Part shown: in pieces, positions 2,574-23,155 of the stretch | Layout: each line of letters starts with the position of its first letter | Numbering within the stretch: the first letter of the stretch is position 1 | Assembly: GCA_944392665.1 (NCBI GenBank) | Contig: CALXXJ010000001.1 | Span: forward strand, 96,754 to 160,753 | DNA length: 64,000 nucleotides | Direction: 5' to 3' | Source: an uncultured Clostridia bacterium | Lineage (GTDB): Bacteria; Bacillota; Clostridia; TANB77; CAG-508 | The notes under the pieces: model-generated | Database searches by the model: none | What the model was told of the DNA's origin: nothing | Seen by the model: only the letters and a program-made list of their open reading frames with translations | Program-made: the position numbers and the translations under genes

Positions 2574-2611
2574 AAAAAACTCGTAAATGAACTAAACATT
2601 TACGAGTTTTT
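2574..2611. terminator. Bidirectional rho-independent terminator between convergent genes
   Basis: AAAAAA-CTCGTAAATG-aactaaa-CATTTACGAG-TTTT: a 10-bp stem with an A-run on one side and a T-run on the other. Confidence 0.65.
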
Positions 2612-2668
2612 ACATATTCAATTTTAATTTGGTCGAATTCAAACACTTTTAATTATTAATATTTATTT

Positions 2669-5342: not shown

Positions 5343-5897
5343 TAAATTTCCTCCTTTATTTTACTAAATTTTTCTTTTTTCTTCAACTCTTTCTTATTAT
5401 TTTTTGAAATTTTATAAGACTTTTTGTTGTACCTCAATATAAGAACAGTAAACGTGTCCAATCGTTCAAATTCTAAATAATAGTGGATTTTTTATTGAGT
5501 AAAATTTGATATATTGATATAAAGCTAATGAAATTTAAAATCATTCTAAATATAATAAAAAACTAATAATAGAATACAAAATTAATTAATAACTAAACAT
5601 TTTTTATCTATGTATATATATAAACACATTCTTCTAATTTTTTCAACAACATATGCACACTTTTCGTCGCAAATTTCGACAAAATAGTTTTATTCTTAAT
5701 GTCCAGATAAAAATGTCTCAAAGAGATACAAATCTCAATAAGACATATAATTTTTTGAAAAACTATATACTTTTTCAAAAAATTAGTGTATAATTAAATA
5801 AATATTAGAATACTATAATATTGTAGATAGATATTCTACTAGGTCTGAAATAGTTTACTAAATTAGGACCTGACCCGAGTTGATGCCAAGCGTCAAC

Positions 5898-5925
5898 AAA
5901 AGCCATTCATACGAATGGCTTTTTT
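5898..5925. terminator. Rho-independent terminator (bidirectional potential)
   Basis: AAA-AGCCATTC-atac-GAATGGCT-TTTTT. It lies 17 nt downstream of the minus-strand DUF3800 stop. It could also end a plus-strand transcript. Confidence 0.6.
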
Positions 5926-5941
5926 ATGTTTTCTTCTCACT

Positions 5942-6685: not shown

Positions 6686-6742
6686 AACTCTCAATAAGAC
6701 AAAAAATGTCCCAAAAAGAAACGTCCCCAAAAGGACAAAAAG
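6665..6742. repeat. Dispersed repeat, copy C (partial unit 6665..6684 plus right arm 6703..6742 of the 40-bp inverted pair)
   Basis: AAAATGTCCCCAATTGGACA ... AAAATGTCCCAAAAAGAAACGTCCCCAAAAGGACAAAAAG. Confidence 0.9.
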
Positions 6743-6782
6743 AACCATAATTACCAAACTATTTGTTTGATTATTATGGTTC
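6733..6782 (-). terminator. Rho-independent terminator after the major TasA-like gene
   Basis: Minus-strand reading: GAACCATAAT..(CAAAC-aaata-GTTTG)..ATTATGGTTC followed by TTTTT. Confidence 0.5.
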
Positions 6783-8112: not shown

Positions 8113-8209
8113 TTTTTACTCCCTTTCTTTCTTTAAATTTATTTATATAAAAAAACTTATAAACATTTTAGTCTTTTGTGTGATTTGTTCACAAAAGTTT
8201 ACAACATAA

Positions 8210-9010
8210 CTATCGTTCATCTTGCGGAATTTCATCTTCTTGTAAAATATGTTCCTCTGTAAGTGTCATATGCATTTTGATTTCTCCACCTATTAAGTCG
8301 TCTAAACATTCAGGATCATCTCCCTCTACCCAGACAACAACAGTCCATTTATCAATATCGCCTACTTCGAAATTTTCTGTTAAATCTAACATAACAGTAT
8401 CTTCATCTTTAAAAGGTGTTGTCTCAGGTTCTGGTTCTCCTGTTTCTCTATTATTTTTTGCATAAACTACTCTTTCGCCATTTTTAAATACCATAACTCT
8501 AATTGCTTCATCTACATTTCTTACAACATCATCTATTTTTATGGTTGTCCAATAATTTATAGTGTCTTGTCCCATATTTTCTGCATAAAATGTATATGCT
8601 ATGTAATTTCTACCATTATGTGAGCCATTTCCTTCATTATCTATATTTTCTGGCAACCAATTTATAGAAATATCTGTAAAAAATTCTATGTCTTTTGATC
8701 TTAAAAATGTTCTTGTATATTTATTTTCTGGGTCTTCATAGATAACTAATCCACTTTCTCTTCCATATTCACTATCTAGTGTTACTGTAAAATTTTCTCC
8801 TTTATAAAATATGGATAATACGATATATACATTAACTAAAAGTAATATAACTAGTACTAAAAATATTTCAAAGGCGATACGTCTTTTGTTTTTTCTTTTT
8901 TCCTTTTTTGCCTTCTTTTCTAGTTTTTCACCAAGTGTTGCTTCATCAATTTGTTCTTCAAGTGTTGGTGTATCTTGCATTTGCGTATTTGTTGTTTCTT
9001 CATTTGCCAT
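8210..9010 (-). CDS. Membrane-anchored extracellular protein sharing the C-terminal W[LV]EG.D..C motif with the TasA-like paralogues
   Basis: Acidic/basic cytoplasmic N-terminus, one TM (IAFEIFLVLVILLLVNVYIVLSIF) and an extracellular domain ending VVWVEGDDPECLDDLIGGEIKMHMTL. AGGTGA RBS. A consensus promoter lies upstream. Confidence 0.75.
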   Translation of the reverse strand: MANEETTNTQMQDTPTLEEQIDEATLGEKLEKKAKKEKRKNKRRIAFEIFLVLVILLLVNVYIVLSIFYKGENFTVTLDSEYGRESGLVIYEDPENKYTRTFLRSKDIEFFTDISINWLPENIDNEGNGSHNGRNYIAYTFYAENMGQDTINYWTTIKIDDVVRNVDEAIRVMVFKNGERVVYAKNNRETGEPEPETTPFKDEDTVMLDLTENFEVGDIDKWTVVVWVEGDDPECLDDLIGGEIKMHMTLTEEHILQEDEIPQDER

Positions 9011-9059
9011 ATTATCACCTAAGTTCCTCTAAAATATTTTTTCAACATTTTATACTAAA

Positions 9060-9088
9060 ATTATACTTAGTCTTATATTTTTTGTCAA
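9060..9088 (-). promoter_or_regulatory. Consensus sigma-A-type promoter (TTGACA-17-TATAAT)
   Basis: Minus-strand reading: TTGACA (9088..9083), 17-nt spacer, TATAAT (9065..9060). It lies ~45 nt upstream of the 8210..9010 start. Confidence 0.6.
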
Positions 9089-9099
9089 CGAATTTGTTA

Positions 9100-9132
9100 T
9101 TACATTTTTGTTACATTTTTGTTACATTTTTC
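9100..9132. promoter_or_regulatory. Three perfect tandem 11-bp repeats (TTACATTTTTG) immediately upstream of the -35
   Basis: Read directly. The 11-bp phasing of T5 tracts suggests curved DNA, an UP-like element or a regulator site. A related triple repeat lies at 62314..62346. Confidence 0.55.
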
Positions 9133-9181
9133 CTGTTGATGTACCATTTTTTTATAACTTATGTCCATCAAAATGTTTTAG

Positions 9182-9382
9182 TAGAATGCTGTTAAATGAT
9201 ATTGAATAAATTTTGAATGTGATTGAAGATATTTTAGAATTTGTTATTTAATTTATTGAGGGATGTTCACGGTACTCACATAGTGAGGGTCTGAGTGAAA
9301 GAGGCTCAATAAATTATGTTACAAATTCTTAAATATCGTATTGAACCGAAAAATTTATGAAATATCATTTAACAGCATTCTA
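9182..9382. repeat. ~200-bp imperfect palindrome (MITE-like element or long structured RNA)
   Basis: Perfect 22-bp termini: TAGAATGCTGTTAAATGATATT (9182..9203) and its reverse complement (9361..9382). Further arm pairing occurs at ATAAATTTT, GATATTT, AGAATTTGT and TAATTTATTGAG. The GC-richer apex is GGGATGTTCACGGTACTCACATAGTGAGGGTCTGAGTGAAAGAGGC. Confidence 0.65.
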
Positions 9383-9393
9383 ATAGAATATTT

Positions 9394-10098
9394 TTATGTA
9401 TCTGCATTTGGATGAATCATAGAACTTGTTATTTTTACAGTTATTTCAATTGCCTTAGAAGGATCATTTGCTTCATCTTGATAATATTCATAAGCACCTT
9501 TTCCAAACTTTGTATCTAAAATATCTTTAGCTAGATTTTCATCTTCTGTTCCATTACCTTGATACTCCCAGCTTGCCTGATACTTGAAGGTTGCTCCAGC
9601 ATTTGGCGTTGTCTCATCATCTTTATATTCTCCATCCAATCTTGCTCTATCATATGTATAACTGATATCAAAAGGATATTCTGTATCATCTGCAAATATA
9701 TGTACTGTATTCCCATCAGTTTGAATCATATTATTTTCTTTTAGTTGATCTAATACCTCTTGTCCAAACACTTTTACAGATGTTAATTCATATTTAATAC
9801 TTGTACTTGTTGTACTCATATTATATATGCGCACAATATCTTCTCTATCAGGCATACCTGGATATAATTCATCTATTGTGAATGTAACACTCTCATCTAA
9901 CATTTCCTTGTCGTCTACATAATATCTAACATCCCAGGGTGTTATATTTGCTTCCAATCCACTCATATTAACTGGTTCATTTGCATTAAACCATGCATAG
10001 GTATTTATTATTAATATTACAGAAAATATCGTAATTAATAGAATTCTAGCTGGAACACTTCGCTTTTTAATTCTTCTAATTTCACGTAATATATTCAT
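9394..10098 (-). CDS. TasA-class secreted protein (SipW-cognate signal TYAWF)
   Basis: N-terminus ARILLITIFSVILIINTYAWFNANEP. GGAGG RBS. N-domain homologous to the N-domain of 2669..4351. Confidence 0.8.
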   Translation of the reverse strand: MNILREIRRIKKRSVPARILLITIFSVILIINTYAWFNANEPVNMSGLEANITPWDVRYYVDDKEMLDESVTFTIDELYPGMPDREDIVRIYNMSTTSTSIKYELTSVKVFGQEVLDQLKENNMIQTDGNTVHIFADDTEYPFDISYTYDRARLDGEYKDDETTPNAGATFKYQASWEYQGNGTEDENLAKDILDTKFGKGAYEYYQDEANDPSKAIEITVKITSSMIHPNADT

Positions 10099-10113
10099 AA
10101 TACCTCCATTCTA

Positions 10114-10962
10114 TCATTTGTTTTTCCTATTTCTTGTATTTTTCTCTTGTGATTTATTTTTTGTAGTATTTATTGTTTTATCATAATATTGTCTCATCTT
10201 TTCATTTATTAGATTTTCAATATTCTCATCATCATCCTCTTTTATTTCTTTATCTTCTATATCATCCTCTGTAACATCATAAGCTTCTTCTATATCTTCA
10301 TCTGCCTCTTCTGAAATATCTTCTTCCATTTCTTCTATGTCTTCCTCAGAAAAATCTTCATCCAGTATATCACCGGTATTAGCAATTTTCTTTTTTTTAC
10401 GCTTCTTTTTTGTTTTTTTAGGAGTATTAAATGCTATAAATACATTTAACACTAAAATAATAACGATAGCAAATATAGAATATATATTGGTTGCTAAATC
10501 ATACAATATTGTCAAAATACTTGATCTATATGTTACAACACCATATATTTGGTCTTCTCTAATTTGAGGATCTTCAACACTATTACTTTGTAAACCTTTT
10601 GCATGGAAAATCAAGTCGCCATTTTCATCTGTATCAATTGCGACAACATTATGCATGATGATTTTTCCTGAATATTCTCCAACTCGACCTAAATATACAA
10701 TATCATCCCCGACTTTAATATCTTTAGGATTTACTTCTTTACTAATAATCACTTCTCCTACTTCATATTCAGGCTCCATACTTCCAGTGATAACTCTAAA
10801 TATTTTATATCCACCTATTGATTGATTATTTGCAGATATTCTTTGTAAAACAATTACCATAGTTAAGATTAAAGCCATTATGACAAGTATTTGATATAGT
10901 ATAATTAGTACTGTTTTTATTATTTTTTTTGCATTAATTTTTGGTCTATTATCCTCCATCAT
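10114..10962 (-). CDS. SipW-type signal peptidase I paralogue with long acidic/basic C-terminal tail
   Basis: TM, then ITGSMEPEYEVGE (catalytic Ser box), MHNVV (His box with N in place of R), AKGLQSN..EDP, a second TM, then KKTKKKRKKKK and a D/E-rich tail. Confidence 0.75.
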   Translation of the reverse strand: MMEDNRPKINAKKIIKTVLIILYQILVIMALILTMVIVLQRISANNQSIGGYKIFRVITGSMEPEYEVGEVIISKEVNPKDIKVGDDIVYLGRVGEYSGKIIMHNVVAIDTDENGDLIFHAKGLQSNSVEDPQIREDQIYGVVTYRSSILTILYDLATNIYSIFAIVIILVLNVFIAFNTPKKTKKKRKKKKIANTGDILDEDFSEEDIEEMEEDISEEADEDIEEAYDVTEDDIEDKEIKEDDDENIENLINEKMRQYYDKTINTTKNKSQEKNTRNRKNK

Positions 10963-10965
10963 AGT

Positions 10966-11589
10966 TTAACCCTCTATCTTATAATTATCTCTCAATTTTT
11001 TTATTTCATATTTTTTTCTTTTTATTTTTCGACTATTTATCACATTGTCTCTAAAATTAATCAAAATGCATATAATCACTATCAAGATACATACATTTAC
11101 AAATCCCCTTACATTTTGTATGTAATTTACTATTTTTCCCACTTTCGGAATAACAAAAACAGCTTTACCATATATATTTTGCATATCTACTGGTTCTTTA
11201 TCTTCTACTTCGTTATTATCACCTTTCGTAATAAATTTCACTTCTCCTTTTTCTTTTGTAATATCTTCGATTCTATGTGAAATCACTCTATCTTCTTGTT
11301 TAAATGTGATAATATCCCCTTCTTTTAGTTCTTCTGTGTTACAACTTTTTACAACAGCTAAATCATCTTTATAAAATGTTGGCTCCATACTTTCAGAAAC
11401 AATGTTAAACATATATATGCCAAAAATATGTTTTTCTTCTTCTATTGATAAGATTAAATTCACTATAAAAAGAACGATTAAAATAATCAATATAATAAAC
11501 TTCACTATCTTTTTGGTTCTTTTTTTATTTTTTATTTTATGAGAAATTTTCTCAACATCATATTCCAATTTTGTTCTCAGCCCCATCAT
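10966..11589 (-). CDS. SipW-type signal peptidase I paralogue (canonical motifs)
   Basis: VSESMEPTF, VISHRIEDI, TKGDNNEVEDKEPV and a C-terminal TM. This is the S26B archaeal/ER-type layout seen in Bacillus SipW. Confidence 0.8.
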   Translation of the reverse strand: MMGLRTKLEYDVEKISHKIKNKKRTKKIVKFIILIILIVLFIVNLILSIEEEKHIFGIYMFNIVSESMEPTFYKDDLAVVKSCNTEELKEGDIITFKQEDRVISHRIEDITKEKGEVKFITKGDNNEVEDKEPVDMQNIYGKAVFVIPKVGKIVNYIQNVRGFVNVCILIVIICILINFRDNVINSRKIKRKKYEIKKLRDNYKIEG

Positions 11590-11669: not shown

Positions 11670-13289
11670 TTAAAATTTCTTTATCATTTCTTTTACATTC
11701 ATGATATATTCTAAATCTTTAATAGAAAATTTGCTTTTTTGAATATTATTATAATTATTTATAATTTTTACTTTTCTAATTAAATCTTCTATACTATCTT
11801 CTTCAAAATTTTCTTTTGAAATTTGCATTCCTAATAATTTATATTTATCTTTTATGATAATTGATAATTCTTTAGTATCACTTATATTTACATGATTGAT
11901 TACTGTAAAATTAGAAAAATTAACAAACTTTCTTATTTTTTCAGCTTTTTCTCCAATTTCTTTGTCTGTGATATCTTCATTATTTTTTATCATTACCTTA
12001 GCCATATATCCATAATAACTACTTGCAAATTTTATAACATCATATAATGATGATGTTTCATCTAGGTTTTGAAGTATTTTTTGTTTTATCATTTCTTCAT
12101 CTAATTGCATATATGTCTTTTTCAAATCTAAAACCAAATTGTTTCTTTGTAAAATAGCAATACTGTCTTTCTTTTCTTCTTTTTTTCTATCAAAAAATCC
12201 TTTATTTGGTTTTTCAATTTTAGCATTTAATTTAAATATTTCTGTTTGTAATTTTTTGATTTCTTCTTTTATTAACTCATATTGTGTTTTCTTAACTTTT
12301 TTATCTTTGTTGGCTTCTGCATTTTTTAATAATTCTTGTCTTGTTTGCAAAACCTCTTCTACTAAGAATTTATATTCCAAATATTTTGCATATTCTGTTA
12401 AATTCGTATTTAATTTATCAATATTTTCATCTATTTCTCTCTTTTCAGTTTCTGATAATTTTGTAACATCTTTATTGGTTAATTCTAAATATATTCTCTT
12501 ATAATTATCTTCTTTATAATCATTAATATTTAGGCTACCTGTATAAAATTTGTCAAGAATGTTTTTGTTGTCTGTTTCTTCTATTTGATTTTTTTGTTTA
12601 ATTAATTCTGCCTTTTTTTCTTCTACACCTTCTAATGTCAAAGAAAGACTTTTTAGGATTTCTTGTGCTTTCTCATTATAAAATTTGTCTATTTGGTTTT
12701 CATATCTGTCATAAATATATCTTATATTAACATATAAATGTGATACCACTTCTGAACATTGCCAATATACTTTTTCAAAAGTATTTTTTACAGCTTCTGA
12801 ATTAATATCCCCTTCATATGCTTCTCTTAATAGAACTTCCATATATTTTTTTGCATATTCACTAATACAAAAATCTTCAGCTGTTAGCTTGATTCCTACT
12901 TTTTCAAATTGTTTTACACTAAAAATAAGTTCTTTGTTTAATCTTTCTAAATTGCTCTTATAGTACCCATTTACATTATATACGACACGATCTAATCCCA
13001 TTTTTTCAAATGAAGAACGTGTATCTGTATTTTTTTCAGCCATGTCATATTTTAATATTTCTTGCTCTAATTGAGGAATCTCTTTATTTTCTTCAACTGT
13101 CGTTAATTCAGTATATCTATCTTCTATTTCTTTTAACAATTTTTCATTAAGATTTTCGTATTTTTCAGTCATATCACTTATGGTTTTTAATAATGTTTTG
13201 ATTGCTTTTATCCCATTTCTTGGTAGTACTGAAATGACTTCTTTATCTGTTGTAATTTGTTTTTCAATATTTTCTACTAACTCTTTCAC
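11670..13289 (-). CDS. Cytoplasmic coiled-coil protein, unknown function
   Basis: 539 aa, K/E-rich heptad-like sequence, no TM or signal. GTG start at 13289 with GGAGG 7 nt upstream. The start overlaps the stop of a small upstream ORF (GTGA). Confidence 0.7.
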   Translation of the reverse strand: MKELVENIEKQITTDKEVISVLPRNGIKAIKTLLKTISDMTEKYENLNEKLLKEIEDRYTELTTVEENKEIPQLEQEILKYDMAEKNTDTRSSFEKMGLDRVVYNVNGYYKSNLERLNKELIFSVKQFEKVGIKLTAEDFCISEYAKKYMEVLLREAYEGDINSEAVKNTFEKVYWQCSEVVSHLYVNIRYIYDRYENQIDKFYNEKAQEILKSLSLTLEGVEEKKAELIKQKNQIEETDNKNILDKFYTGSLNINDYKEDNYKRIYLELTNKDVTKLSETEKREIDENIDKLNTNLTEYAKYLEYKFLVEEVLQTRQELLKNAEANKDKKVKKTQYELIKEEIKKLQTEIFKLNAKIEKPNKGFFDRKKEEKKDSIAILQRNNLVLDLKKTYMQLDEEMIKQKILQNLDETSSLYDVIKFASSYYGYMAKVMIKNNEDITDKEIGEKAEKIRKFVNFSNFTVINHVNISDTKELSIIIKDKYKLLGMQISKENFEEDSIEDLIRKVKIINNYNNIQKSKFSIKDLEYIMNVKEMIKKF

Positions 13290-13423
13290 GATTTTTCCTC
13301 CTCTAATTTTTTAACAGTTTCATATTCACCATTTAAAAATTTTAAAAAGCTTTCTACTTGTTTTTGGGTATCTAACAATTCATCATTTTCTAAATTAGAT
13401 GTTTTTATATTTTTTAATTCCAC
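13286..13423 (-). CDS. Candidate 45-aa small ORF, translationally coupled to the 539-aa gene
   Basis: Own translation: (GTG)ELKNIKTSNLENDELLDTQKQVESFLKFLNGEYETVKKLEEEKS. GAGGTG lies 6 nt upstream. Its TGA stop overlaps the GTG start of the next gene. Below the ORF-track length cut-off. Confidence 0.25.
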   Translation of the reverse strand: MELKNIKTSNLENDELLDTQKQVESFLKFLNGEYETVKKLEEEKS

Positions 13424-13458
13424 AAAGCTCACCTCTTTTACTTTTATCTTTTATTTTA

Positions 13459-14169
13459 TTAAGTTGTTGTTTCTTCTTCTGGTGGTATATATTGTGTAAA
13501 TGTCATTGTTGCTCGATATTTTAATGTTGTACGTAATTCATTTTGAGAAGTATTATTTTCAACTTGATTTGTCGTATCTTCATTTGTTGTATTATCATTT
13601 GTTGTATTTTGTTCTTCTCCTCTAAACTGGGTATCTGCTCTATTATCCATGGTACTTCCTTCACCGTCATTCCATCTAAATAAGACTCTGATTTCTCTTT
13701 TCTTCTCTCCTGCGCTATTTACTTCAGTTGTTGGATCAATAATACCTTTTATCTCGCTTGTTTCTGTTATGGTATGATCATCTCCATCAATAACTTCATA
13801 CCCATAGATTTCAAAATCCTCTAGTGGTGTTTCATTTAGTTGCTCTATAGAAAATTCATATTCAAATACAACATCTACCTCTGTATAATCTATTAACATT
13901 TCAAAATATCCAGTTTGTCCAGGCACTAAAATATCAGGATTTACATTTTCATTTTCTACAATGATAGGTTCCATTACTTCATTTAGTGTTTCTGCCTCAT
14001 GGACAATTTTATCATTTACTTTAACTAACCATCTTTTGATATTTGTATTATATGTTGTATCTACCTGTTCAAAATATCTCGCATAGGTTCTTTGTATAGA
14101 AAAAATGGTAATGATTAAAGAAATTACACATAATATTTCGATAATTCTAACCTTATTTTTTTTTCTCAT
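13459..14169 (-). CDS. Small anchored or secreted protein, TasA-related class (TYARYF signal end)
   Basis: N-terminus IIEILCVISLIITIFSIQRTYARYFEQ. Contains VPGQTGYFEMLIDY, resembling the PG..x.F beta-sandwich motif of TasA/camelysin-like proteins. N/T-rich C-terminal region. Confidence 0.7.
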   Translation of the reverse strand: MRKKNKVRIIEILCVISLIITIFSIQRTYARYFEQVDTTYNTNIKRWLVKVNDKIVHEAETLNEVMEPIIVENENVNPDILVPGQTGYFEMLIDYTEVDVVFEYEFSIEQLNETPLEDFEIYGYEVIDGDDHTITETSEIKGIIDPTTEVNSAGEKKREIRVLFRWNDGEGSTMDNRADTQFRGEEQNTTNDNTTNEDTTNQVENNTSQNELRTTLKYRATMTFTQYIPPEEETTT

Positions 14170-14246
14170 TCCTTTTCCTTTCCATTTTTTTTCAATTTTT
14201 CTTTTATGTACTCTTCTTTTTCGTTTTTCTTCGGTTATTGCTTTTA

Positions 14247-15098
14247 TTAATTTTCTCTTTCGATTTTCCTTACCCTTCTGTTTCTAAAAAATCTAAATGC
14301 TACATATATTGTTAGTGGTAATATTCCACAGAAATAGAAAACATATTTATTATTTAATAACATACAAATAAGTGATAAAATATACATTTTTGTTTGAACC
14401 ACACCATTTATTTGTTCTTCACTTATGACAGGATCTTCTAGATTGTTAGCAATACCTTTTGTATGGAAAACTCTTTTACCATCAACTTCTTCAATATCCA
14501 CAACCCTGTGAGTTACAAGCATTCCATTCATTGTACCTGTGTTTCCTTCATATGTCACATCATCACCAATTTGAATTTTATCTGTATCTACTTCTTTTAC
14601 TAATATTACATCACCAATTTGATATTTGGGAATCATACTTCCAGTCTGTACTCTAAATATCCTAAATCCTAAAAATGACTCTTGGTTATTTGTCACTTTT
14701 TGTACTACTATAATGATAGAGACAAATACAATAGCAATCGTTAGTATTTTTACAAATATATTCCAAATAAATGTGAAAACTCTGCTTCCAGTTTTTCTGT
14801 CCATTTTTATCCCTGTTGTTGTTCCCACCTTTGATTCTTCATTTTTTTCCTTTTCTTTGCTTTTTATTTCATTATTTTTTGTTTTACTTTCCTTTTCTTC
14901 ACTTTTTGTTTTACTATTTTTTATCTTATCTTCCTTTGTTTCACTTGTTGTTTTATTATTTTTTGTTGTGCTTTCCTTTCCTTTAGCTTTTGAGTCATCT
15001 TTTTTGGTTTTGCTTTCTTTTTTTACAGTATTTTTTTTAGTCTTGACCGCACCATTTTTGGTTTTCTCTTCTTCTCTTTTGTCCTTCTTGTTTTCCAT
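14247..15098 (-). CDS. SipW-type signal peptidase I paralogue with ~95-aa K/E/T-rich N-terminal extension
   Basis: QTGSMIPKYQIGD, LVTHRVVDI, TKGIANNLEDP and a C-terminal TM. Its start abuts the stop of the upstream gene (15098/15099). Confidence 0.75.
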   Translation of the reverse strand: MENKKDKREEEKTKNGAVKTKKNTVKKESKTKKDDSKAKGKESTTKNNKTTSETKEDKIKNSKTKSEEKESKTKNNEIKSKEKEKNEESKVGTTTGIKMDRKTGSRVFTFIWNIFVKILTIAIVFVSIIIVVQKVTNNQESFLGFRIFRVQTGSMIPKYQIGDVILVKEVDTDKIQIGDDVTYEGNTGTMNGMLVTHRVVDIEEVDGKRVFHTKGIANNLEDPVISEEQINGVVQTKMYILSLICMLLNNKYVFYFCGILPLTIYVAFRFFRNRRVRKIEREN

Positions 15099-16220
15099 TT
15101 ATTTTAACCTCACTTCTTTTGCTTGTATCATATATTTTTCAATTCGTTCTTTAAATCTATCTTCTATAGGTTTTAAAGAAATTAATTTTTTCGTTTTCAT
15201 CACCAAGATTTTTTCTGAAATTAATTTATTCAACTCTTTCTCTGTCATATCTGGATTTAATTCTATAATTCTTTCTATCATGGCATCTGTTAATTGTTTT
15301 GCCAACTTATTATCTTCAACACCTGATTTTGCTTTTCCTTTTAATGTATTACTATCATCTGTCTTTCTAAAAATAGAATGTAACAAAAATATGTCTTCAT
15401 CTACTAATTCCTTTACAATTCCTTTTTCTTCATATTGACTCGTCTCATTAACTGTTTTATCATTTAATTCCATTTGCTCACTTAAATAGTTCCATAATTT
15501 TACAGCATATTGAAAGTTAACATTTTTTAACAAAACATTTGTCATTTTTAATGGTGCTTTTACATATGTTGCTTTTTTGGCAACCAATGTTTGATAAACC
15601 TCAGTTTGTTTTAACATTTTTAAAGATCTTTCTATACTTGCTATTCTCTCTGCTGTTTTTTCTGTCTTTGTAATCCCTGTTATCCTTTCAGACTCATATT
15701 GCATCTTTACATTAATTTTTTCTTTTCCTAATTTGACTTCTGCTTGATAATCTGCTTTTTGATGATTTTTCCCTTTATATTCTTCATCATCTTGTTTTTT
15801 TCTTAAATACATATAATCTTCAATTAGTTTTATTAATGTATATAAAAATCTATTTTCATAATTAAGAAAAGTTTCTTCCTTATAGGCATTTAAAATCTTT
15901 TTAGGTGTTACTTCTCCACTTTTTTGATTAAATCTATCTACTAGATTTACATGTTTTGATAAATGTTTTACACTGTCTACTGTTACTTTTTTAATTAATT
16001 CTATTTTGATAATTTCTTCTTCTGTAACAATATTTTTTATTTCTTTCGTTAATGCTTTTTCTAAATATGGAATCGTAAATTCAACCATATCCATCCATTC
16101 ATCATTTTCTACAATATGGCTTCTATCTACATCCATCATTAACTTAGAATCAATTTTACTAAGAAACTTTGTTGAATTTTCTTTTTCCATATTGGCTAAT
16201 TTCACAATATTTAAGTCCAT
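15099..16220 (-). CDS. Cytoplasmic protein with possible McrC/DUF2357-like N-terminal region and no recognisable nuclease motif
   Basis: ETFLNYENRFLYTLIKLIEDY resembles the (D)TxENRF(L/V)K motif of McrC/DUF2357 partners of McrB-type AAA+ proteins. It sits directly downstream of the McrB-like gene. The ATG at 16220 (GGAGGG RBS) is preferred over the tracked TTG at 16241, which lies inside the palindrome. Confidence 0.6.
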   Translation of the reverse strand: MDLNIVKLANMEKENSTKFLSKIDSKLMMDVDRSHIVENDEWMDMVEFTIPYLEKALTKEIKNIVTEEEIIKIELIKKVTVDSVKHLSKHVNLVDRFNQKSGEVTPKKILNAYKEETFLNYENRFLYTLIKLIEDYMYLRKKQDDEEYKGKNHQKADYQAEVKLGKEKINVKMQYESERITGITKTEKTAERIASIERSLKMLKQTEVYQTLVAKKATYVKAPLKMTNVLLKNVNFQYAVKLWNYLSEQMELNDKTVNETSQYEEKGIVKELVDEDIFLLHSIFRKTDDSNTLKGKAKSGVEDNKLAKQLTDAMIERIIELNPDMTEKELNKLISEKILVMKTKKLISLKPIEDRFKERIEKYMIQAKEVRLK

Positions 16221-16233
16221 TTTTCCCTCCGAG

Positions 16234-16308
16234 GTTGCCAAAGGGGACGGGTTGATTTGGCAACTTTTTTTATGTAAGTTGCCAAATCAACCCGTCCCCT
16301 TTGGCAAC
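16234..16308. promoter_or_regulatory. Perfect 32-bp inverted repeat (75-nt hairpin) filling the intergenic gap
   Basis: GTTGCCAAAGGGGACGGGTTGATTTGGCAACT (16234..16265), an 11-nt loop, then the exact reverse complement (16277..16308). Contains the GGGGACG core of the dispersed repeat. Confidence 0.85.
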
Positions 16309-16310
16309 TT

Positions 16311-17864
16311 TTAAGACATCTTTTTAAGTCTTAATAAGAATTCTATACATTCACTCATTTTGCCTTTTCCAAAGTTTTTATCTAAAAACTCAATATAACC
16401 ATCAATTTCATCTCTAATTAAAGTTAAGTTTAATCCTTCAAATTTTCTTAATACTTTTTTAGCCATGAAATAGTCTACTGCTTCTGTTTCGTCTCCTCCG
16501 CAAGCTACATATACTGGCACAAATTTTCTCATATGTTTTACAATACGGTTACCAAATGCAACTCTAAAGTGTTTGATTGTATAATCATCCATGTCTTCTA
16601 TCTTTTTCAAAGTTGCTGGTGATATTGCATAATCTGTCATTGCTTTTTCAAATAAACCGTTTAAGTATGAGTAGTTTACGTCAAGAGCTTCCACATCATC
16701 TGGTTCAAATGCAACACCTTTTTCATTAATATCAATAGGCATTGCTCTATCATATACCTTATCTGTTACCATGAATGTTGAGTCGTCATTGTTAATTGTT
16801 CCGATATACCATGCATTTGGTGGAATCTGCAACTTTCCTTTGATTAATTTCTTTGGATCAGTTGGCCATGAACTTTGTACGATTTCAATTTTCCAATCTT
16901 TTGTACTGTGCATTTCTAGAATTGATAACATTTCTGCAAAATAATATTCCACACGCGCTAAGTTCATCTCGTCTAGGATAACTGTATAGATTTCATCTGT
17001 ATATCCTGCTTCATATAAATATGCTAAAAAGTCTGTTTCATTAAATTTCTTGGTGAACTCATTTAAGTATCCAAAAATATCTGTTCTATCTCTCCAAGAT
17101 GGTTGCACAGATGCAACACATGAAGGATGTTTTACAAAGTTACCCCATGCAAGAGATATAGATGTTTTACCAGTACCAGAAATACCTTGTAAAATAACAA
17201 GTTTAGTTGATGCAATTGCTGATACAAATAGTCTTATCATCTTTTCACTATAATATAGTTTTAACTTGCTTGCAGCAAAATTTCTAAACATATAACAAAA
17301 TTCTGGTAATGTGAAATTATTATGATAGTCTTTTTGTTTATATTTCGCAAATTCTTCATCTAATGCTGTTAACTTAGAGAACCTACTTTGTGTATTAGGA
17401 TCAATTTGTTCTTCATTATTTGCTTCTGATTGTGCGGCAGCAAGTGCAGCTTTATCTATACCTGCACTGATACCATTTGGATTTACACCCAATTCTGGTG
17501 ACTTCATATTTAACAATTTTAGTTTTTCGTCTACTAATTCTTCTACTTGTCCATTTAAGGTATCTATTTGTTTTAATAATTCTTCTTGGTCAATAATCTT
17601 TTTTCTCCATTTCATATGTCTTTTTAAGAAAAAGATTATAATTCCAACAATACCTCCAATAACGATTAGCATAAGAATAATTGCTAAACCTGTTAAAAAC
17701 CATTCTGAGACTTGAAAGTCATTTGCATAATGTTGGATAATTCCCCAATATCTTGGTATATTAAATATATTTACAATCCCATTCCAAAGACCACTGAATA
17801 TATCTCCAAATCCAGAAAAGAATTGACTTAAAAATTCAAATAAAAATCTTCCATATGTTTCCAT
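16311..17864 (-). CDS. Membrane-anchored McrB-like (AAA_5/COG1401-type) AAA+ NTPase
   Basis: N-terminal hydrophobic segments (FLTGLAIILMLIVIGGIVGIIIFFL) and a coiled coil (EELLKQIDTLNGQVEELVDEKLKLL). Then Walker A LQGISGTGKTS, SVQPSWRDRTDIFGY, Walker B plus the McrB signature VILDEMNLARVEYYFAEMLSILE, and IPPNAWYIGTINNDDSTFMVTDKVYDRA. AGGAG RBS. Confidence 0.75.
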   Translation of the reverse strand: METYGRFLFEFLSQFFSGFGDIFSGLWNGIVNIFNIPRYWGIIQHYANDFQVSEWFLTGLAIILMLIVIGGIVGIIIFFLKRHMKWRKKIIDQEELLKQIDTLNGQVEELVDEKLKLLNMKSPELGVNPNGISAGIDKAALAAAQSEANNEEQIDPNTQSRFSKLTALDEEFAKYKQKDYHNNFTLPEFCYMFRNFAASKLKLYYSEKMIRLFVSAIASTKLVILQGISGTGKTSISLAWGNFVKHPSCVASVQPSWRDRTDIFGYLNEFTKKFNETDFLAYLYEAGYTDEIYTVILDEMNLARVEYYFAEMLSILEMHSTKDWKIEIVQSSWPTDPKKLIKGKLQIPPNAWYIGTINNDDSTFMVTDKVYDRAMPIDINEKGVAFEPDDVEALDVNYSYLNGLFEKAMTDYAISPATLKKIEDMDDYTIKHFRVAFGNRIVKHMRKFVPVYVACGGDETEAVDYFMAKKVLRKFEGLNLTLIRDEIDGYIEFLDKNFGKGKMSECIEFLLRLKKMS

Positions 17865-17884
17865 CTTTTACTTCTCCTGTTTCT

Positions 17885-18931
17885 TTATTTTAGTATTACA
17901 TTATCAAAAATTGCTTTGTTACTCTTTATTTCTTTATATAATGCCAATTTTTGTGGTACAATCACCATTTTAAACATTTTTAATTTTTCTACATCTTCTA
18001 TACTTTTTACTGTATTATCTAATGTAATCGTAAAATTGTAACCTTTTTTTGTATATCCTAAAATACTTTTTTGATTTTTTATATAATCAGAGTACATAAT
18101 ATTCAAATGTATTTTATCTTGCAATTCTTGATTTCCTAGAATTGACAATATACTGTCTAATTTTTGTTTCTTTTTAAATAGTGTACTTGCAAATTCTGCA
18201 ATATATGTATCATCAAAATTTCCATTTACGATATCTGAAATGACAACAACACTTAATAATATATATTCTACTTGCAATTTATCTTCTGCAACAATTCCTT
18301 CATTATATACTTTTTCTATCGCTGCTTCACTATATTGCATAGGCATTTTTACCTTTTGCTCTAATGTCACAAAATATACATCATCTTTCCCTTTACTATT
18401 TTCAAATTGTAAAGCAAATTCATCTGTATCAAATTTATCTAAAAATACTTCTTTTTCAATCATATCTTTTTTGATTTCTTCATACAATTTTTTTTCAGTA
18501 CTTTGTGAAATTTCTATTTTAAATAACGCACTTGCTGTTTGTATCATTCTACTAATAATTTCTTTTATATTATCAATTGACTTAAAATTTTCTACATTTC
18601 TAACATTATCAAAAAATAAAATATATGCAAACAATTCCTTTAAATTATGAATTTTATTTAATTGTTCTTGCTTTTCATTTAAGTTTTGAGATTCTTCTTC
18701 ACATTTTTTCATTAGAATATCTTCTTTATATTCTAATTCTTCTAATATTCTTAAGTAAAATGCTCTTGCAGGTGTATCTGTATTTTGAATATTATAATAT
18801 CTAGCATTAATATATGTTTTTAAATATTCATTTACTAAATTTTCATCATATTGTTTATCCAACATGGTTTTCATGTATTTTTTTATTTTCTTTTCTGTAA
18901 ATGTTATATATGTATCCATTAAATTGTTCAT
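17885..18931 (-). CDS. Cytoplasmic protein, unknown function
   Basis: No TM or signal. The ATG at 18931 (AGGAGG 6 nt upstream; MNNLMDTYITF) is preferred. The tracked start at 18985 would translate the dispersed repeat. Confidence 0.65.
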   Translation of the reverse strand: MNNLMDTYITFTEKKIKKYMKTMLDKQYDENLVNEYLKTYINARYYNIQNTDTPARAFYLRILEELEYKEDILMKKCEEESQNLNEKQEQLNKIHNLKELFAYILFFDNVRNVENFKSIDNIKEIISRMIQTASALFKIEISQSTEKKLYEEIKKDMIEKEVFLDKFDTDEFALQFENSKGKDDVYFVTLEQKVKMPMQYSEAAIEKVYNEGIVAEDKLQVEYILLSVVVISDIVNGNFDDTYIAEFASTLFKKKQKLDSILSILGNQELQDKIHLNIMYSDYIKNQKSILGYTKKGYNFTITLDNTVKSIEDVEKLKMFKMVIVPQKLALYKEIKSNKAIFDNVILK

Positions 18932-19017: not shown

Positions 19018-19590
19018 CTAAATGATTTGTTCTGCATTAATATCTAGTTTTACATATTCAATCAAATCAGAATATTCTGCATTCGTATCATTTTCCTTTG
19101 GAAATGTTACTTTAATAACATAATTATCTGTCAAATCTTCTCCTTGTGTCATTTGTGATGGATCTATTATGATTTCTCTGTAATATGTGCCATCTTCATC
19201 AGTAACGATATTTTGCTCTGTCGTTATAATTTCTCCATTTTTTTCGATTACATACTCTAATGGTAAATTTGTTGTTGTTGTTATTTTTAAATTATATTCT
19301 AAATCTGTTTCTGCTCTTTTGTTGATTGTTCCATCTTCATCTGCTTCAAAATTTGATACCGAAAAAGAATAGTCAAATGAATTATTTGATGGATATATAT
19401 CTTCTATGATAATACTTGCTGATTGAAAATCATCATGAAACATCCAGAAAGCAACATCTACATCTTTTTCTGATGTCGCCACTGTTTCATATCTTGATAA
19501 TGTATTTCTTATAAAAATAATAGCGACTATAATAATTGCTATTAAAAAAAGTATGATGATACTTTTTTTCAATTTTTTCTTATCCAACAT
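19018..19590 (-). CDS. Small anchored or secreted protein, TasA-related class
   Basis: N-terminus SIIILFLIAIIIVAIIFIRNTLSRYETV. The ATG at 19590 with an AGGTGA RBS is preferred over the GTG at 19602. It overlaps the upstream peptidase gene by 11 nt. Confidence 0.7.
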   Translation of the reverse strand: MLDKKKLKKSIIILFLIAIIIVAIIFIRNTLSRYETVATSEKDVDVAFWMFHDDFQSASIIIEDIYPSNNSFDYSFSVSNFEADEDGTINKRAETDLEYNLKITTTTNLPLEYVIEKNGEIITTEQNIVTDEDGTYYREIIIDPSQMTQGEDLTDNYVIKVTFPKENDTNAEYSDLIEYVKLDINAEQII

Positions 19591-20104
19591 CTTTTTTCTC
19601 ACCTATTTTTTCTTTATATGAAATCATCACTATAAATAATATTATCGTTATAATCATTGGTATAATAACATGCATATCTGTAAATACTTGTTTCCAAACT
19701 TCTACATTATTGATAATACATACTGCTTTACCTATCACTTGATCTTTTTTTATTGGCTCATCCTGGATATTGTTATAATCTCCTTTAGTAATGATAGTAT
19801 CTCCATCTATTTGTTCTATTCTATGTGTAATTAATACATCATCCTGTTTGTATGTTATAATATCATCTTCCTTTATTTCATCACCTATTTTAATGATTAT
19901 AATATCACCTACTTCTATGGTTGGTGACATACTTCCAGTTTCTGTACTAAGTATAGAATATCCAAATATATTCACATATTCTTTATTTTGTATGTTTAAT
20001 TGTATAAATCCCCATATGACAAGAATAGCAATGATACTCAATACAAAAATTATTAGGTCTACAATTACTTTTTTAATAATTTTTAATATTTCTTTATGGT
20101 TCAT
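19580..20104 (-). CDS. SipW-type signal peptidase I paralogue (canonical motifs)
   Basis: ETGSMSPTIEVGD, LITHRIEQI, TKGDYNNIQDEP and a C-terminal TM. It overlaps the upstream gene by 11 nt. Confidence 0.8.
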   Translation of the reverse strand: MNHKEILKIIKKVIVDLIIFVLSIIAILVIWGFIQLNIQNKEYVNIFGYSILSTETGSMSPTIEVGDIIIIKIGDEIKEDDIITYKQDDVLITHRIEQIDGDTIITKGDYNNIQDEPIKKDQVIGKAVCIINNVEVWKQVFTDMHVIIPMIITIILFIVMISYKEKIGEKKDVG

Positions 20105-20735
20105 TGCCTATCACTTCTCCCGTATATTGTTTTAAATTAATTTCTAATGGAATGTTTATCTTTGCATCCTGTGTTTGTCCCAATTCTGAATCAGCTTCAT
20201 TATTTTCTTCTACATTTTCCCATTCAAAATATAATCGAATATGATTTAAATATTTGTCATTTATTGTTGCAATAGGAATAATAGCCTCATGCTCATTGGT
20301 TTCATATGTGGTATATACATCGTCATTTGTCAATTGTTCTGTCTCTCCAGGCTTTTGAAAATAATTTTCTACATTTACTAATTTTAATTTTGCCTCTGCT
20401 ACTGCATCTAATTTTACATTTAATGTATATAAAATAGATACATCTGTATTTGTCGGGTCTATAATAATCTCAAAATATGCCTGTGTTCCTGGAGCCATCT
20501 TTTGGCTTTTAACATGTTCAGAATCCAAATATGTCAAATTGTCTTCTGTCATGTTAAAAGTCAAATTTTCCTCTCCTGAAGATATATCTGTTTCATTTAC
20601 TTTGATGGACCATGCACCTAATAAACTTGTATAATCTCCTTCTAATTGATCTTTATATAAAGCATACATGTTAGCTATTTGGAATAAGGTTATAATTAAC
20701 ATTATTAATACTAAAATTCTTAATAATTTTTTCAT
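20094..20735 (-). CDS. Small anchored or secreted protein, TasA-related class
   Basis: N-terminus LRILVLIMLIITLFQIANMYALYKDQ. Contains APGTQAYFEIIIDP (compare VPGQTGYFEMLIDY in 13459..14169). Its start abuts the upstream stop. Confidence 0.7.
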   Translation of the reverse strand: MKKLLRILVLIMLIITLFQIANMYALYKDQLEGDYTSLLGAWSIKVNETDISSGEENLTFNMTEDNLTYLDSEHVKSQKMAPGTQAYFEIIIDPTNTDVSILYTLNVKLDAVAEAKLKLVNVENYFQKPGETEQLTNDDVYTTYETNEHEAIIPIATINDKYLNHIRLYFEWENVEENNEADSELGQTQDAKINIPLEINLKQYTGEVIGNEP

Positions 20736-21533
20736 TTATTCTTCCTCTTTTGATGATTTTGTAGCTTTTGCTTTAGTAGTAGCTGTTGCTGCTTTTTTTG
20801 TTGTGCCTGTTTTTCTTGTTGTACTTGCTTTTTTTGCTGTACTAGTCTTTGAACCTGCACTTGTCTTGGTTCTTGTACTTGTACTTGCTCTAGTCGTTGT
20901 TTTTGGACTGGATGTTCTAGTTGTTCTTGTATTCTTCTTTGGTCTTACAACTTCTTCGTCTTCCTCATCATCTTCCTCATCTTCATCTGCCTCAATTTCT
21001 ATTGCTTCTTGTTTCTTTAGTTTGTTAAGATATTTAATTTCCATAACTAATTCAAATACTTCTTGTAAGAATAGTAATAATGATACCACTACGATACAGA
21101 ATAAATATCCCCATCTAGATTCTAATAGATTTAATATATATCCCCAACCTTCTATAACAATTGTATCATCAACTTTTCCTATAAAATAATCACTTGCATA
21201 ACGTTCTTCATTATCTACAATATATACTGTATGTGAACCTTGTTGTGTTTTTCCTTGTAAAGTTGTACTGATAACTTCATATTCTGAGCTATTCAATACT
21301 TTATACATAAATATTTCGTCACCAACTTGGACATTTCTATCATTTGTTTCTTTTATTAATAGTATAGAACCTTGTTTATATGTAGGCTCTAATGAATCAT
21401 CTGTGACTATATAAATTGTATATCCGCCTATTTCACTATTATTATAATCATTGTAAGATAGTAATAATACGGTTACTGTAATTGCAATGATAGCATATAG
21501 TACAAATAATATAGTTCCTAGTACTTTTTTCAT
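20736..21533 (-). CDS. Divergent SipW-like peptidase paralogue with acidic then T/K/S/A-rich tail
   Basis: TM, then TDDSLEPTYKQGS (Ser box retained). No clear [TS]HR or TKGD.N boxes. A second TM, then EDEEDDEEDEE and TTRTSSPKTTTRASTSTRTKT.... Confidence 0.6.
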   Translation of the reverse strand: MKKVLGTILFVLYAIIAITVTVLLLSYNDYNNSEIGGYTIYIVTDDSLEPTYKQGSILLIKETNDRNVQVGDEIFMYKVLNSSEYEVISTTLQGKTQQGSHTVYIVDNEERYASDYFIGKVDDTIVIEGWGYILNLLESRWGYLFCIVVVSLLLFLQEVFELVMEIKYLNKLKKQEAIEIEADEDEEDDEEDEEVVRPKKNTRTTRTSSPKTTTRASTSTRTKTSAGSKTSTAKKASTTRKTGTTKKAATATTKAKATKSSKEEE

Positions 21534-21591
21534 CTTTTATCTTCCTTGCATTATATATTTAGGTTTTTTATCTGGTTGTACCTATAAACCT

Positions 21592-22047
21592 TTATTCATT
21601 AGTTACTTTTTGTAATTGTATTGATTGTGTACCTGTTAAATTACCATTTAATATAACACTGATATCATATTGTTCTCCAACACCTAAGCTTTGAATCCAT
21701 GTTTGCATTTGTCCTAATACCTCTCCATCAGCACCAACTAAAATAGCATTTAAACTTTCATTTTCTACTGCAGTTTGTGTTGTGTTTAATATAGACATAG
21801 ATACCATTGTTTGATCTTGGTCATCTAAATATTCCATATAAATATTTGATACTTCCATATCGCTATATGTTGTGTCTGGTAATGGAATCACAGATTGTTG
21901 TTCTTCTCCAGTAGTTTCCTCATTATTGTTAACATTTCTAACAATTAAAACAATTGCAACCACTAAAATGATAATCGCAATAATGGCTATCAATATAATT
22001 CCTAACATTTTCTTACCTTTTCTTACTTTTCTAGTTTTTTTCTCCAT
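21592..22047 (-). CDS. Small N-terminally anchored extracellular protein
   Basis: Basic N-terminus, one TM (LGIILIAIIAIIILVVAIVLIV) and a ~100-aa beta-rich domain. AGGAGG RBS. Confidence 0.65.
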   Translation of the reverse strand: MEKKTRKVRKGKKMLGIILIAIIAIIILVVAIVLIVRNVNNNEETTGEEQQSVIPLPDTTYSDMEVSNIYMEYLDDQDQTMVSMSILNTTQTAVENESLNAILVGADGEVLGQMQTWIQSLGVGEQYDISVILNGNLTGTQSIQLQKVTNE

Positions 22048-22275
22048 GTTTTCCTCCTTCTTTTCTACATTTTTTTATACTTTTCTACTATATTTTATAC
22101 CATAACTTTTTTTTAAAGTCTATACTTTTACGAATAAAAATTATATATATTTTGTGACAATTCACATGCAAAATCATATACACTTTATACTTCCAAATAT
22201 TACCTATATAATATTGATTAGAACCCTATACATACAATGTACATATTGGGTTCTTATCAATATCATTTTTTATCT

Positions 22276-23155
22276 TTATGATTCATCATTTACTGTAATG
22301 ACAGATGTAGTATCACCTGAAGGATATGTATAATCTTGGGTCATATCCACTTTATAAAATTTAATATTTTTAGCAGATTCTTTGTCCATTGTAAAAACAA
22401 ACTTCTCCACATATCCATCACTATTGACTTCTTCACTACCTTCTAGTCTATTGATATATGCTTCATCATTTAAGTCAATTCTTACAACATTTGGATCAAA
22501 CTCTAACGAAACATTTCCTCCTGTATCATGAGTATTTATCATTTTTAAAGTTAAATAATTTCTATTTGCAACATCTTCTATTTCATAACTATTTGCTAAA
22601 ACTTGTTGTATTCTTAATGTGATTTCACAAGAAATTTCTTTTTGATATGGTTCTTGTGTGCTTGCTTTTATTCTAATCGTAATTGTGTCATTTTGTTCAA
22701 TTTGTGTTTTAGGTGTTACTACAATTTTTATCCTGCTAACATTATTTTGAGCTTCTCCCTCTTTTGCATATATGACTCCTGTTGTTTCTGTAGGCCCACC
22801 TTCTTCATTAATACCGTAAAGTTACTTTATCTGTATCTGGCGTTTCACACGAAAGAGCATACTCTAAATCATAATCTAACCTCAATAATGTATTTTGATA
22901 ACTATATAAATCAAAATTGATTTCATAATTATCTACACCACCCCAATTTTCATATTGGTAAGTCGCATTATCAAGAGTCAATAAATCACTTGTAAAATAA
23001 AATTCTTTTGAAGTAAAATATGCTTCTCTTGCTTGATAATAAATATATCTACCAAATACTGAACATGTAATGACTATTACAAGTACAATAAACAATAGCA
23101 TGGTTCTTTTTATTCTTTTTTCTTTTCTTATTCTTGCATGTTTTCTTCTTTCCAT
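22276..23155 (-). pseudogene. Frameshifted TasA-related anchored protein gene (115-aa and 88-aa ORF-track pieces belong together)
   Basis: Own translation: after the stop at 22808 the +1 frame is open all the way (YGINEEGGPTETTGVIYAKEGEAQNNVSRIKIVVTPKTQIEQNDTITIRIKASTQEPYQKEISCEITLRIQQVLANSYEIEDVANRNYLTLK) and runs straight into MINTHDTGGNVSLEF.... The span is 880 nt (3n+1). Both frames are open only in 22811..22821. Confidence 0.7.

Follow-up and report, generated by a model that had tools for sequence, protein, structure and literature searches.

Bell, Makarova, Wolf and Koonin (eLife 2024, PMC11090510; preprint PMC10542128) described a branch of McrB-type GTPases in which a shorter signature, NxD, usually with E or another D after it, replaces NxxD. 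In the systems that they named CoCoPALM, the GTPase is fused to an FtsB-like transmembrane (TM) and coiled-coil domain, coiled coils are usually present on both the McrB and the McrC homologues, and associated genes of the signal peptidase family were interpreted as pilus assembly factors (PMC11090510). CoCoPALM was introduced there in three sentences, its analysis being deferred to a "forthcoming publication", and the name was not found in later papers of the library searched. Here we report on a 64,000-nucleotide (nt) stretch of contig CALXXJ010000001.1 from an uncultured Clostridia bacterium (the window), with a focus on the genes at positions 11670-18931. A membrane-tethered NxD GTPase and its DUF2357-containing, McrC-like partner are encoded there inside a lineage-conserved cluster, together with five signal peptidases of SipW type and seven or more signal-anchored secreted proteins, and a giant surface protein adjoins the cluster. 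An initial annotation had considered either a repurposed McrBC-like motor or a nested defense module and had taken both to be undescribed; the latter point does not hold, as the CoCoPALM architecture had been named in 2024 (PMC11090510). The module very probably belongs to the CoCoPALM kind, and it is a well-conserved example of a class that was named in 2024 and never characterized. We propose that it is probably a membrane-tethered module, driven by GTP, that assembles or regulates a SipW-dependent surface filament and is not a restriction system.

From about position 59245 down to 6832, every gene is encoded on the minus strand, in DNA with a G+C content of 25-35%. Those at the center of this study are transcribed in the order X348, GTPase, partner, SipW_283, 236-aa protein, small open reading frame (ORF) and 539-aa protein. 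The ORFs and motifs quoted in the initial annotation were all present where it had placed them. The genes are the following, with the basis of each call in brackets (aa, amino acids; AF2, AlphaFold2):

17885..18931, minus strand: X348, a 348-aa cytoplasmic protein with a predicted N-terminal helical bundle and C-terminal alpha/beta domain (ORF list, AF2 model)
16311..17864, minus strand: 517-aa McrB-like GTPase of the NxD branch, membrane tethered (ORF list, Protein Data Bank [PDB] matches)
15099..16220/16241, minus strand: McrC-like DUF2357 partner of 373 aa, or 380 aa from an upstream TTG at 16241 (Pfam)
14247..15098, minus strand: SipW_283, a 283-aa SipW-type signal peptidase (TIGR02228)
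13459..14169, minus strand: 236-aa protein, secreted or anchored, that begins with a signal anchor and contains RTYARYF, a putative SipW substrate or fiber subunit (ORF and TM)
13286..13432, minus strand: small soluble ORF of 45-48 aa (ORF listing)
11670..13289, minus strand: 539-aa K/E-rich protein without a TM segment (composition, hydropathy)

The AAA+ core of the GTPase had been read as McrB type, and searches of the PDB agreed. A single-sequence phmmer search matched E. coli McrB alone (E=2.7e-5, residues 203-375), as did a search with the family profile (1.5e-5). Pfam gave no match at E<=0.1, so the McrB identity rests on the PDB matches and the motifs. A MoxR-type assignment was rejected, since neither MoxR nor RavA was among the PDB matches of the single sequence or the profile. 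Walker A (GISGTGKTS, residues 227-235; 17160..17186, minus strand) and Walker B (ILDEMN, residues 296-301; 16962..16979, minus strand) are invariant in the alignment of relatives, the latter aligning to IIDEIN of E. coli McrB. The sensor asparagine N358 is also invariant, as is R373 within an invariant DKVYDRA. The conservation of these four elements indicates that the GTPase looks enzymatically active. Its signature, INNDDST (residues 357-363), contains N358-N-D360-D361, an NxD followed by D (16782..16793, minus strand). Taken by itself, the window sequence can also be read as NxxD in an ungapped alignment to NTAD of E. coli. However, N-x-D was found in all of about 140 aligned representatives at 50% identity, with D or E next in nearly all (rarely Q, G or A) and a context of GT(A/I)N-x-D nearly always followed by (D/E)-ST. 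This family-wide pattern decides for NxD.

The initial annotation had placed TM segments and a coiled coil ahead of the core. One TM helix is certain (residues 56-80; 17625..17699, minus strand), with a 19-residue Kyte-Doolittle mean of up to 3.27. It is followed by KRHMKWRKK, so that by the positive-inside rule the GTPase domain would face the cytoplasm. A second TM segment is possible. Residues 1-40 (17745..17864, minus strand) are aromatic and glycine rich and strongly conserved (METYGRFLFEFLxQFFSGF..., with invariant alignment columns); the Phe/Gly-rich part, at about residues 5-35, has a hydropathy below 1.0, yet a TM segment is predicted at the same position in several relatives. It may form the first TM helix of a hairpin or an amphipathic membrane segment. 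In residues 81-121 (17502..17624, minus strand), a basic stretch precedes leucine-zipper-like heptads; the coiled coil is present as claimed, and short (residues 88-121, about 35 residues and five heptads). The following residues 122-160 (17385..17501, minus strand) form a variable, indel-rich linker with insertions of 0-40 residues in the alignment.

The suspicion that the next gene encodes a relative of McrC was borne out by a match to Pfam DUF2357 (E=1.5e-7, 31.4 bits versus a cutoff of 23.3), and PF09823 was precomputed for all 120 listed partner homologues. DUF2357 is the N-terminal domain of McrC according to Bell et al. (PMC11090510). In an alignment of the partner from 33 species, the DUF2357 block (about residues 40-135) holds YENRF and an invariant K108, and further conserved blocks read PIKKTNVILKNVNFQYAxKLWNYL and DETFLL. 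As had been noted for the single sequence, no PD-(D/E)xK motif, i.e., a conserved D...(D/E)xK, was present in the 33-species alignment, and no nuclease family was matched. At the motif level, a nuclease-less partner is supported, and the protein may retain a degenerate nuclease fold. An AF2 model based on 24 sequences at 67-96% identity had a low predicted local distance difference test score (pLDDT 54.7). It contains a long beta-hairpin (148-183) followed by helices, with no further strands. Foldseek matches to this model (TolC, CapZ) were meaningless, and PDB sequence and profile searches with the partner returned nothing meaningful.

With CoCoPALM the module shares the NxD motif, a TM segment with heptads, an adjacent DUF2357 McrC homologue and adjacent signal peptidases. 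It differs in the short partner (373 aa), which has no evident long coiled coil; the partners of 623-668 aa encoded in three related loci (L087, L091 and L096, listed below) have obvious long coiled coils. The CoCoPALM paper makes no mention of several features seen here, namely the five SipW paralogues, the seven or more signal-anchored proteins, the giant adhesin and the conserved, possibly EAL-like neighbor of 348 aa. Canonical McrBC of E. coli has the same AAA+ GTPase core (Walker A, Walker B, sensor Asn, Arg) and a DUF2357 partner immediately downstream. The window GTPase departs from it in having NxD instead of NxxD and a TM anchor in place of the DNA-binding N-terminal domain, its partner lacks the PD-(D/E)xK motif, and the pair sits in a vertically conserved surface cluster instead of a mobile restriction context. 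CoCoNuT systems (CnuB/CnuC) also belong to the NxD branch and carry a coiled coil N-terminal to the GTPase, and CnuC of types II and III likewise lacks nuclease residues (PMC11090510). Unlike CoCoNuT, the window module includes neither a nuclease, of HEPN or any other type, nor the CnuH helicase, its coiled coil is short, and it has a membrane anchor and SipW neighbors. The AAA+ core also resembles PDC-M26A of PADLOC (2.7e-36), but the match is confined to that core (positions 314-435 of a 724-position model), and the partner and the neighboring proteins match no PADLOC model. Literature searches found no paper linking SipW and McrB, McrB and signal peptidases in a pilus context, or RF39 and SipW, and none naming PDC-M26; one apparent SipW-McrB match was rejected because it was merely an E. 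coli strain genotype.

We assessed gene order in the 80 best loci from other species, some neighbors being counted only in loci that had room for them. GTPase identity to these orthologues was 57-95%. In 80/80 loci the GTPase gene is immediately followed, on its own strand, by the partner gene, with a gap of -27 to +100 nt. The gene immediately after the partner encodes a SipW-type peptidase in 72 of the 75 loci with room, and the one immediately before the GTPase encodes X348 in 70 of 71. One or more SipW genes were found in 79 loci and a secreted-protein homologue in 77. The whole arrangement recurs in all 80 species examined and is not a product of chance. The order of genes in the upstream (19018..23155) and downstream (6832..11589) parts of the cluster is also kept across species.

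The rates at which the cluster genes diverge were compared using median identities to the window in 74 non-close species. The GTPase (60%) is the slowest-evolving gene of the cluster, followed by a 266-aa anchored protein (50%), the peptidases (32-41%), the partner (35%), the secreted proteins (25-34%) and X348 (29%). Together with the synteny, these data support the GTPase/partner pair as an integral, vertically conserved part of the SipW/secreted-protein cluster. This vertical conservation favors the first option of the initial annotation, a repurposed McrBC-like motor at the membrane. Such a fixed position and slow evolution would be unexpected for restriction or defense genes.

A scan of one genome per species found a full-length GTPase relative in at least 538 species. 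The genome records are those of uncultured Bacilli, "Tenericutes", "Mollicutes" or "Clostridia" metagenome-assembled genomes, and include complete chromosomes of 1.26 and 1.55 Mb; we take these genomes to be RF39-like. The exact GTPase protein occurs on 19 metagenome contigs, with identical gene order in the six loci shown, and a 90%-identical member of its cluster is annotated merely as a hypothetical protein of "Clostridium sp. 28_12".

SipW-type genes had been reported to abut the pair, and the start of SipW_283 indeed abuts the stop codon of the partner (15098/15099). Of the five SipW-type paralogues in the window, four score above the TIGR02228 cutoff of 51.85 bits (111.2, 82.2, 70.4 and 63.0, the second value being that of SipW_283) and the fifth scores 37.6. 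SipW_283 has a 110-aa K/E/T-rich cytoplasmic N-terminal extension. SipW_282 and SipW_265 carry highly charged C-terminal extensions of about 100 aa; B. subtilis SipW is not known to have long charged extensions. The extensions of these three paralogues may be cytoplasmic docking sites. The signal-anchored proteins have a common plan, in which a basic N-terminus and a hydrophobic helix are followed by (T/N)(Y/F)AW(F) or a similar motif, and A-W-F after the signal helix is invariant in two secreted-protein families. This region resembles the SipW cleavage region of TasA and camelysin.

Two groups of known systems are comparable in this respect. The tapA-sipW-tasA fiber operons of Bacillus and the archaeal bundling pili likewise have a TIGR02228-type signal peptidase beside its presumed substrates, and the pattern T-[YF]-A-[WR]-[FY] just after the signal helix of the window substrates resembles the TasA/camelysin cleavage region. 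In contrast, these systems have no known cytoplasmic NTPase, and the secreted proteins of the window match no TasA, camelysin or Peptidase_M73 model.

The flanks of the seven central genes contain four further SipW-type peptidases and several signal-anchored proteins of 194-426 aa:

6832-8112, minus strand: secreted 426-aa protein with ATYAWF (ORF)
8210-9010, minus strand: TM-anchored 266-aa protein (ORF)
9394-10098, minus strand: secreted 234-aa protein with NTYAWF (ORF)
10114-10962, minus strand: SipW_282 (TIGR02228, 63.0 bits)
10966-11589, minus strand: SipW_207 (TIGR02228, 111.2 bits)
19018-19602, minus strand: secreted 194-aa protein (ORF)
19580-20104, minus strand: SipW_174 (family models)
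20736-21533, minus strand: SipW_265 (family models)
within 19018..23155, minus strand: secreted 213-aa protein and 151-aa TM protein (ORFs in the upstream part of the cluster)
22276-23155, minus strand: frameshifted gene of a TM-anchored protein of about 290 aa (ORFs, comparison with other species)

A sequence scan of the coding strand found no terminator-like site between 23341 and 6737. Promoter scanning was uninformative in this AT-rich DNA (140 sites versus 124 expected). A perfect TTGACA-17-TATAAT match at 9060-9088 (minus strand), just upstream of the 266-aa gene, is maybe an internal promoter, in a scan that overall did not exceed background. The 266-aa protein is the best-conserved cluster product after the GTPase and shares with the 426-aa protein the C-terminal motif W-x-E-G-x-D-x-(D/E)-C...GG, in which W390, E392, G393, Q394, D395, D397 and C398 are invariant in the 426-aa family. 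The 236-aa protein is conserved in 64 of the 80 loci; its gene is codirectional with the cluster in the species group of the window and occupies the same position on the opposite strand in most other species.

The TM-anchored gene at 22276-23155, which precedes X348, is split in the window by a +1 frame change near 22810, and is a single ORF of about 285-315 aa in most species. The shift occurs at the identical codon in four other species and six independent assemblies (L007-L010 and L001-L006, respectively). Both halves are open and conserved, and so is the junction DNA (GATAAAGTnACnnTACGGTATnAAT). The cause could be programmed +1 frameshifting, a split that has been conserved, or a pseudogene common to these genomes. 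Upstream of the cluster are two giant ORFs, of 2547 aa (51602-59245), with an N-terminal signal anchor, and of 9437 aa (23404-51717), with none at its listed start. They overlap by 116 nt (51602-51717) at the end of the former, and may be a single gene with a frame change, encoding a surface protein of about 11,900 aa. Just past the downstream end of the cluster, at 4437-6757, are an Rpn-family PD-(D/E)xK transposase-like gene (PDDEXK_2, 1.2e-52) and a DUF3800 gene, the sole mobile-element- or defense-flavored genes nearby.

The wider family was explored by an exhaustive search of 1.84 billion representatives, which returned 8291 relatives at E<=1e-3, 739 of them at E<=1e-30. The aligned representatives form two groups, one TM bearing with N-terminal regions of about 95-520 aa (mostly 95-380) and one without TM segments, most of whose members have N-terminal regions of 330-540 aa. 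Genomic contexts were viewed for eleven distant representatives, 10 of them at informative loci (34-46% identity), as follows (order of genes, with identity to the window GTPase; LRR, leucine-rich repeat):

L088, 41%: secreted protein, SipW, GTPase, DUF2357
L089, 34%: anchored protein, secreted protein, GTPase, SipW
L091, 46%: GGDEF, EAL, anchored, secreted, SipW, GTPase, DUF2357 (623 aa, long EEARLAEEAR coiled coil), SipW, further genes, EAL
L092, 44%: secreted, SipW, GTPase, EAL (325 aa), DUF2357
L096, 43%: three secreted, SipW, GTPase, DUF2357 (668 aa), SipW
L087, 46%: two GTPase/DUF2357 units by an adhesin-like protein and a protein of more than 3176 aa; no SipW within the 8-kb flanks
L097, 44%: GTPase and DUF2357 between giant and small LRR surface proteins; no SipW
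L094, 38%: X348-like, GTPase, DUF2357; holin-like genes adjoin
L090, 36%: three-TM form, alone with a 663-aa partner
L095, 42%: without TM; superfamily-1 helicase, VWA, kinase and PP2C genes alongside
L093, 42%: contig too short for neighbors

SipW and secreted-protein genes were present at 5/9 informative loci of TM-bearing members, and two more of the nine adjoin giant LRR or adhesin proteins. The initial annotation had suggested weighing co-occurrence with SipW against restriction contexts: in this small sample, TM-bearing members occur with secretion and surface genes, and restriction-modification genes are beside none of them. The sole TM-less relative examined, L095, has a helicase/VWA/kinase context of CoCoNuT type. 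In L087 (4475-9554), two tandem GTPase genes are almost identical over their C-terminal ~370 residues and differ in their TM N-termini; the first is followed by the gene of a 668-aa coiled-coil DUF2357 protein and the second by that of the adhesin-like protein. The EAL and GGDEF genes are bona fide Pfam members, located at 3396-4373 in L092, between the GTPase and its DUF2357 partner, and at 485-3098 and 11446-14295 in L091. These two lineages hint at a recurrent link of CoCoPALM-type modules to cyclic-di-GMP signaling.

Taken together, the case for a role in the assembly or regulation of a surface structure, as against defense or something unrelated, stands at slightly better than even. By analogy with McrBC (PMC11090510), the GTPase would form a hexameric ring into which the DUF2357 finger of the partner inserts to stimulate GTP hydrolysis. 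Whereas in McrBC this cycle places a nuclease on DNA, here its site of action would be the membrane, where it would organize, power or gate the processing of SipW substrates and their polymerization into a surface filament. It might do the same for display of the giant adhesin. Contact may be made through the N-terminal membrane segment of the GTPase and the charged cytoplasmic tails of the peptidases, with X348 and the 539-aa protein as cytoplasmic accessories, the former perhaps a degenerate EAL-like regulatory subunit. The module would be a vertically inherited cell-surface apparatus. A bolder version is possible, if doubtful: an McrBC-derived, membrane-tethered GTPase ring, plugged by a nuclease-less McrC relative, would be the obligatory cytoplasmic engine or gate of an unrecognized kind of SipW-dependent filament in small-genome gut Bacilli and related Bacillota, maybe under EAL-type (cyclic-dinucleotide) control. 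In that version, the way of building filaments would differ from those of type IV pilus ATPases, sortase pili, chaperone-usher pili and passive TasA polymerization.

Several observations weigh against this proposal. The fiber role of the secreted proteins is inferred: they match no TasA, camelysin (Peptidase_M73) or pilin model in Pfam or NCBIfam, and PDB profile searches with two of their families retrieved no TasA entry and nothing meaningful. SipW/TasA-type fibers are not known to need a cytoplasmic NTPase, so that the role of a motor is not accounted for. The hexamer, the finger insertion and the specificity for GTP are assumed from E. coli McrBC, the partner model being too poor to address them. 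In the partner, the coiled coil that is usual in CoCoPALM is not evident, and the C-terminal half is predicted to be helical at low confidence. No FtsB/DivIC homology was detected by Pfam in the N-terminus of the window GTPase, and DivIC/FtsL_2 matches were sub-threshold in 2/7 N-termini of relatives. The 80 loci are the closest relatives, from one broad lineage, so that the synteny partly reflects shared ancestry, and the distant contexts amount to a small sample.

The best-surviving alternative, although rather unlikely, is a regulatory switch. The GTPase, its partner and an EAL-like X348 would respond to a signal in the cytoplasm, for example a cyclic dinucleotide or the level of GTP, and gate SipW processing or the display of the filament or adhesin. 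Analogues exist in FimX-PilZ-PilB of type IV pili and in LapD, which controls adhesin retention. X348 has no Pfam or PDB sequence match. Its AF2 model (pLDDT 69, shallow alignment) is confident in both the N-terminal helical bundle and the C-terminal alpha/beta part, with residues 166-260 below 50. In a Foldseek search of the PDB, EAL domains made up about half of the top 50 matches to this model (MorA, LapD, MucR, FimX, RocR and YkuI), a ranking that speaks for the switch. So do the constant position of X348 upstream of the GTPase, the EAL gene inserted between GTPase and partner in L092, and the GGDEF and two EAL genes around the module in L091.

The fold matches are weak, however: probabilities of 0.8-0.99 come with E values of 0.01-0.6 and template-modeling scores of 0.3-0.44, in a model whose middle is below pLDDT 50. 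Comparisons by hhalign of X348 with three PDB EAL domains and with the two locus-encoded EAL proteins gave probabilities below 0.1, and Pfam EAL was matched by 1 of 27 members of the X348 family (E=0.035). The invariant residues of X348 do not correspond to the EAL set, and no EAL catalytic or binding residues are conserved. As the Foldseek ranking and the gene context alone favor EAL, we keep this link as a lead and not as a finding. The weak EAL-like fold signal, together with the EAL/GGDEF genes in two related loci, is nevertheless a new lead.

X348 and the 539-aa protein had been described as cytoplasmic proteins flanking the pair. Neither has a hydrophobic segment, but the 539-aa gene is not next to the pair, lying two genes downstream. 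Its product is K/E rich as reported (14.8% K, 13.0% E), matched no family in Pfam, PADLOC or NCBIfam scans, and is probably largely coiled coil and an accessory cytoplasmic component. A homologue is present in 28/80 loci, at varying positions. The 45-48-aa ORF, which has 4 nt in common with the beginning of the 539-aa gene, was called in all six assemblies of the same species.

A function in quality control or extraction appears improbable. In this view, the tethered ring would extract signal anchors left uncleaved, precursors that have jammed or the giant adhesin from the membrane, or draw them across it. Substrate clearance is known from other membrane AAA+ proteins, and the module has a ring-type AAA+ enzyme with a membrane tether, many signal-anchored substrates with five peptidases and, in L087 and L097, relatives that adjoin giant surface proteins without a SipW gene. 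In McrBC, however, the pore is filled by the McrC finger and not used for threading (PMC11090510). The retention of the DUF2357 partner in 80/80 loci argues for the McrBC mode of action, and no protease or unfoldase signature was present.

The second option of the initial annotation, a membrane-associated anti-phage or anti-plasmid module of type IV restriction descent, CoCoNuT-like and nested in a surface locus, is weakened to the point of being very unlikely: common ancestry with McrBC and the CoCoNuT branch, the match to the PADLOC candidate PDC-M26A and the holin and phage-like genes beside the L094 relative speak for it, but no conserved cluster gene matched a nuclease, HEPN or helicase family (Pfam, PADLOC, NCBIfam), the PADLOC match covers only the AAA+ core and leaves out the partner, synteny with SipW genes is fixed across 80 species in surface contexts, the GTPase is the most conserved gene of its cluster, the opposite of what is typical for defense genes, and a pattern-based search of limited sensitivity found no relative in 2.9 million viral contigs.

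For annotation, an McrB-like or PADLOC match in this setting should not be read as a defense system. If our proposal of a surface assembly or regulatory module is correct, the motor of a restriction enzyme has become a component of a machine for cell-surface assembly, and the CoCoPALM branch, so far only named, would gain a function. The module would also represent a new coupling of cytoplasmic nucleotide hydrolysis, and possibly of second-messenger signaling, to Sec/SipW-dependent fibers and giant adhesins. The machine would then be a conserved trait, probably a core one, in a large group of uncultured bacteria of the human and animal gut, being carried by at least 538 genomes at species level.

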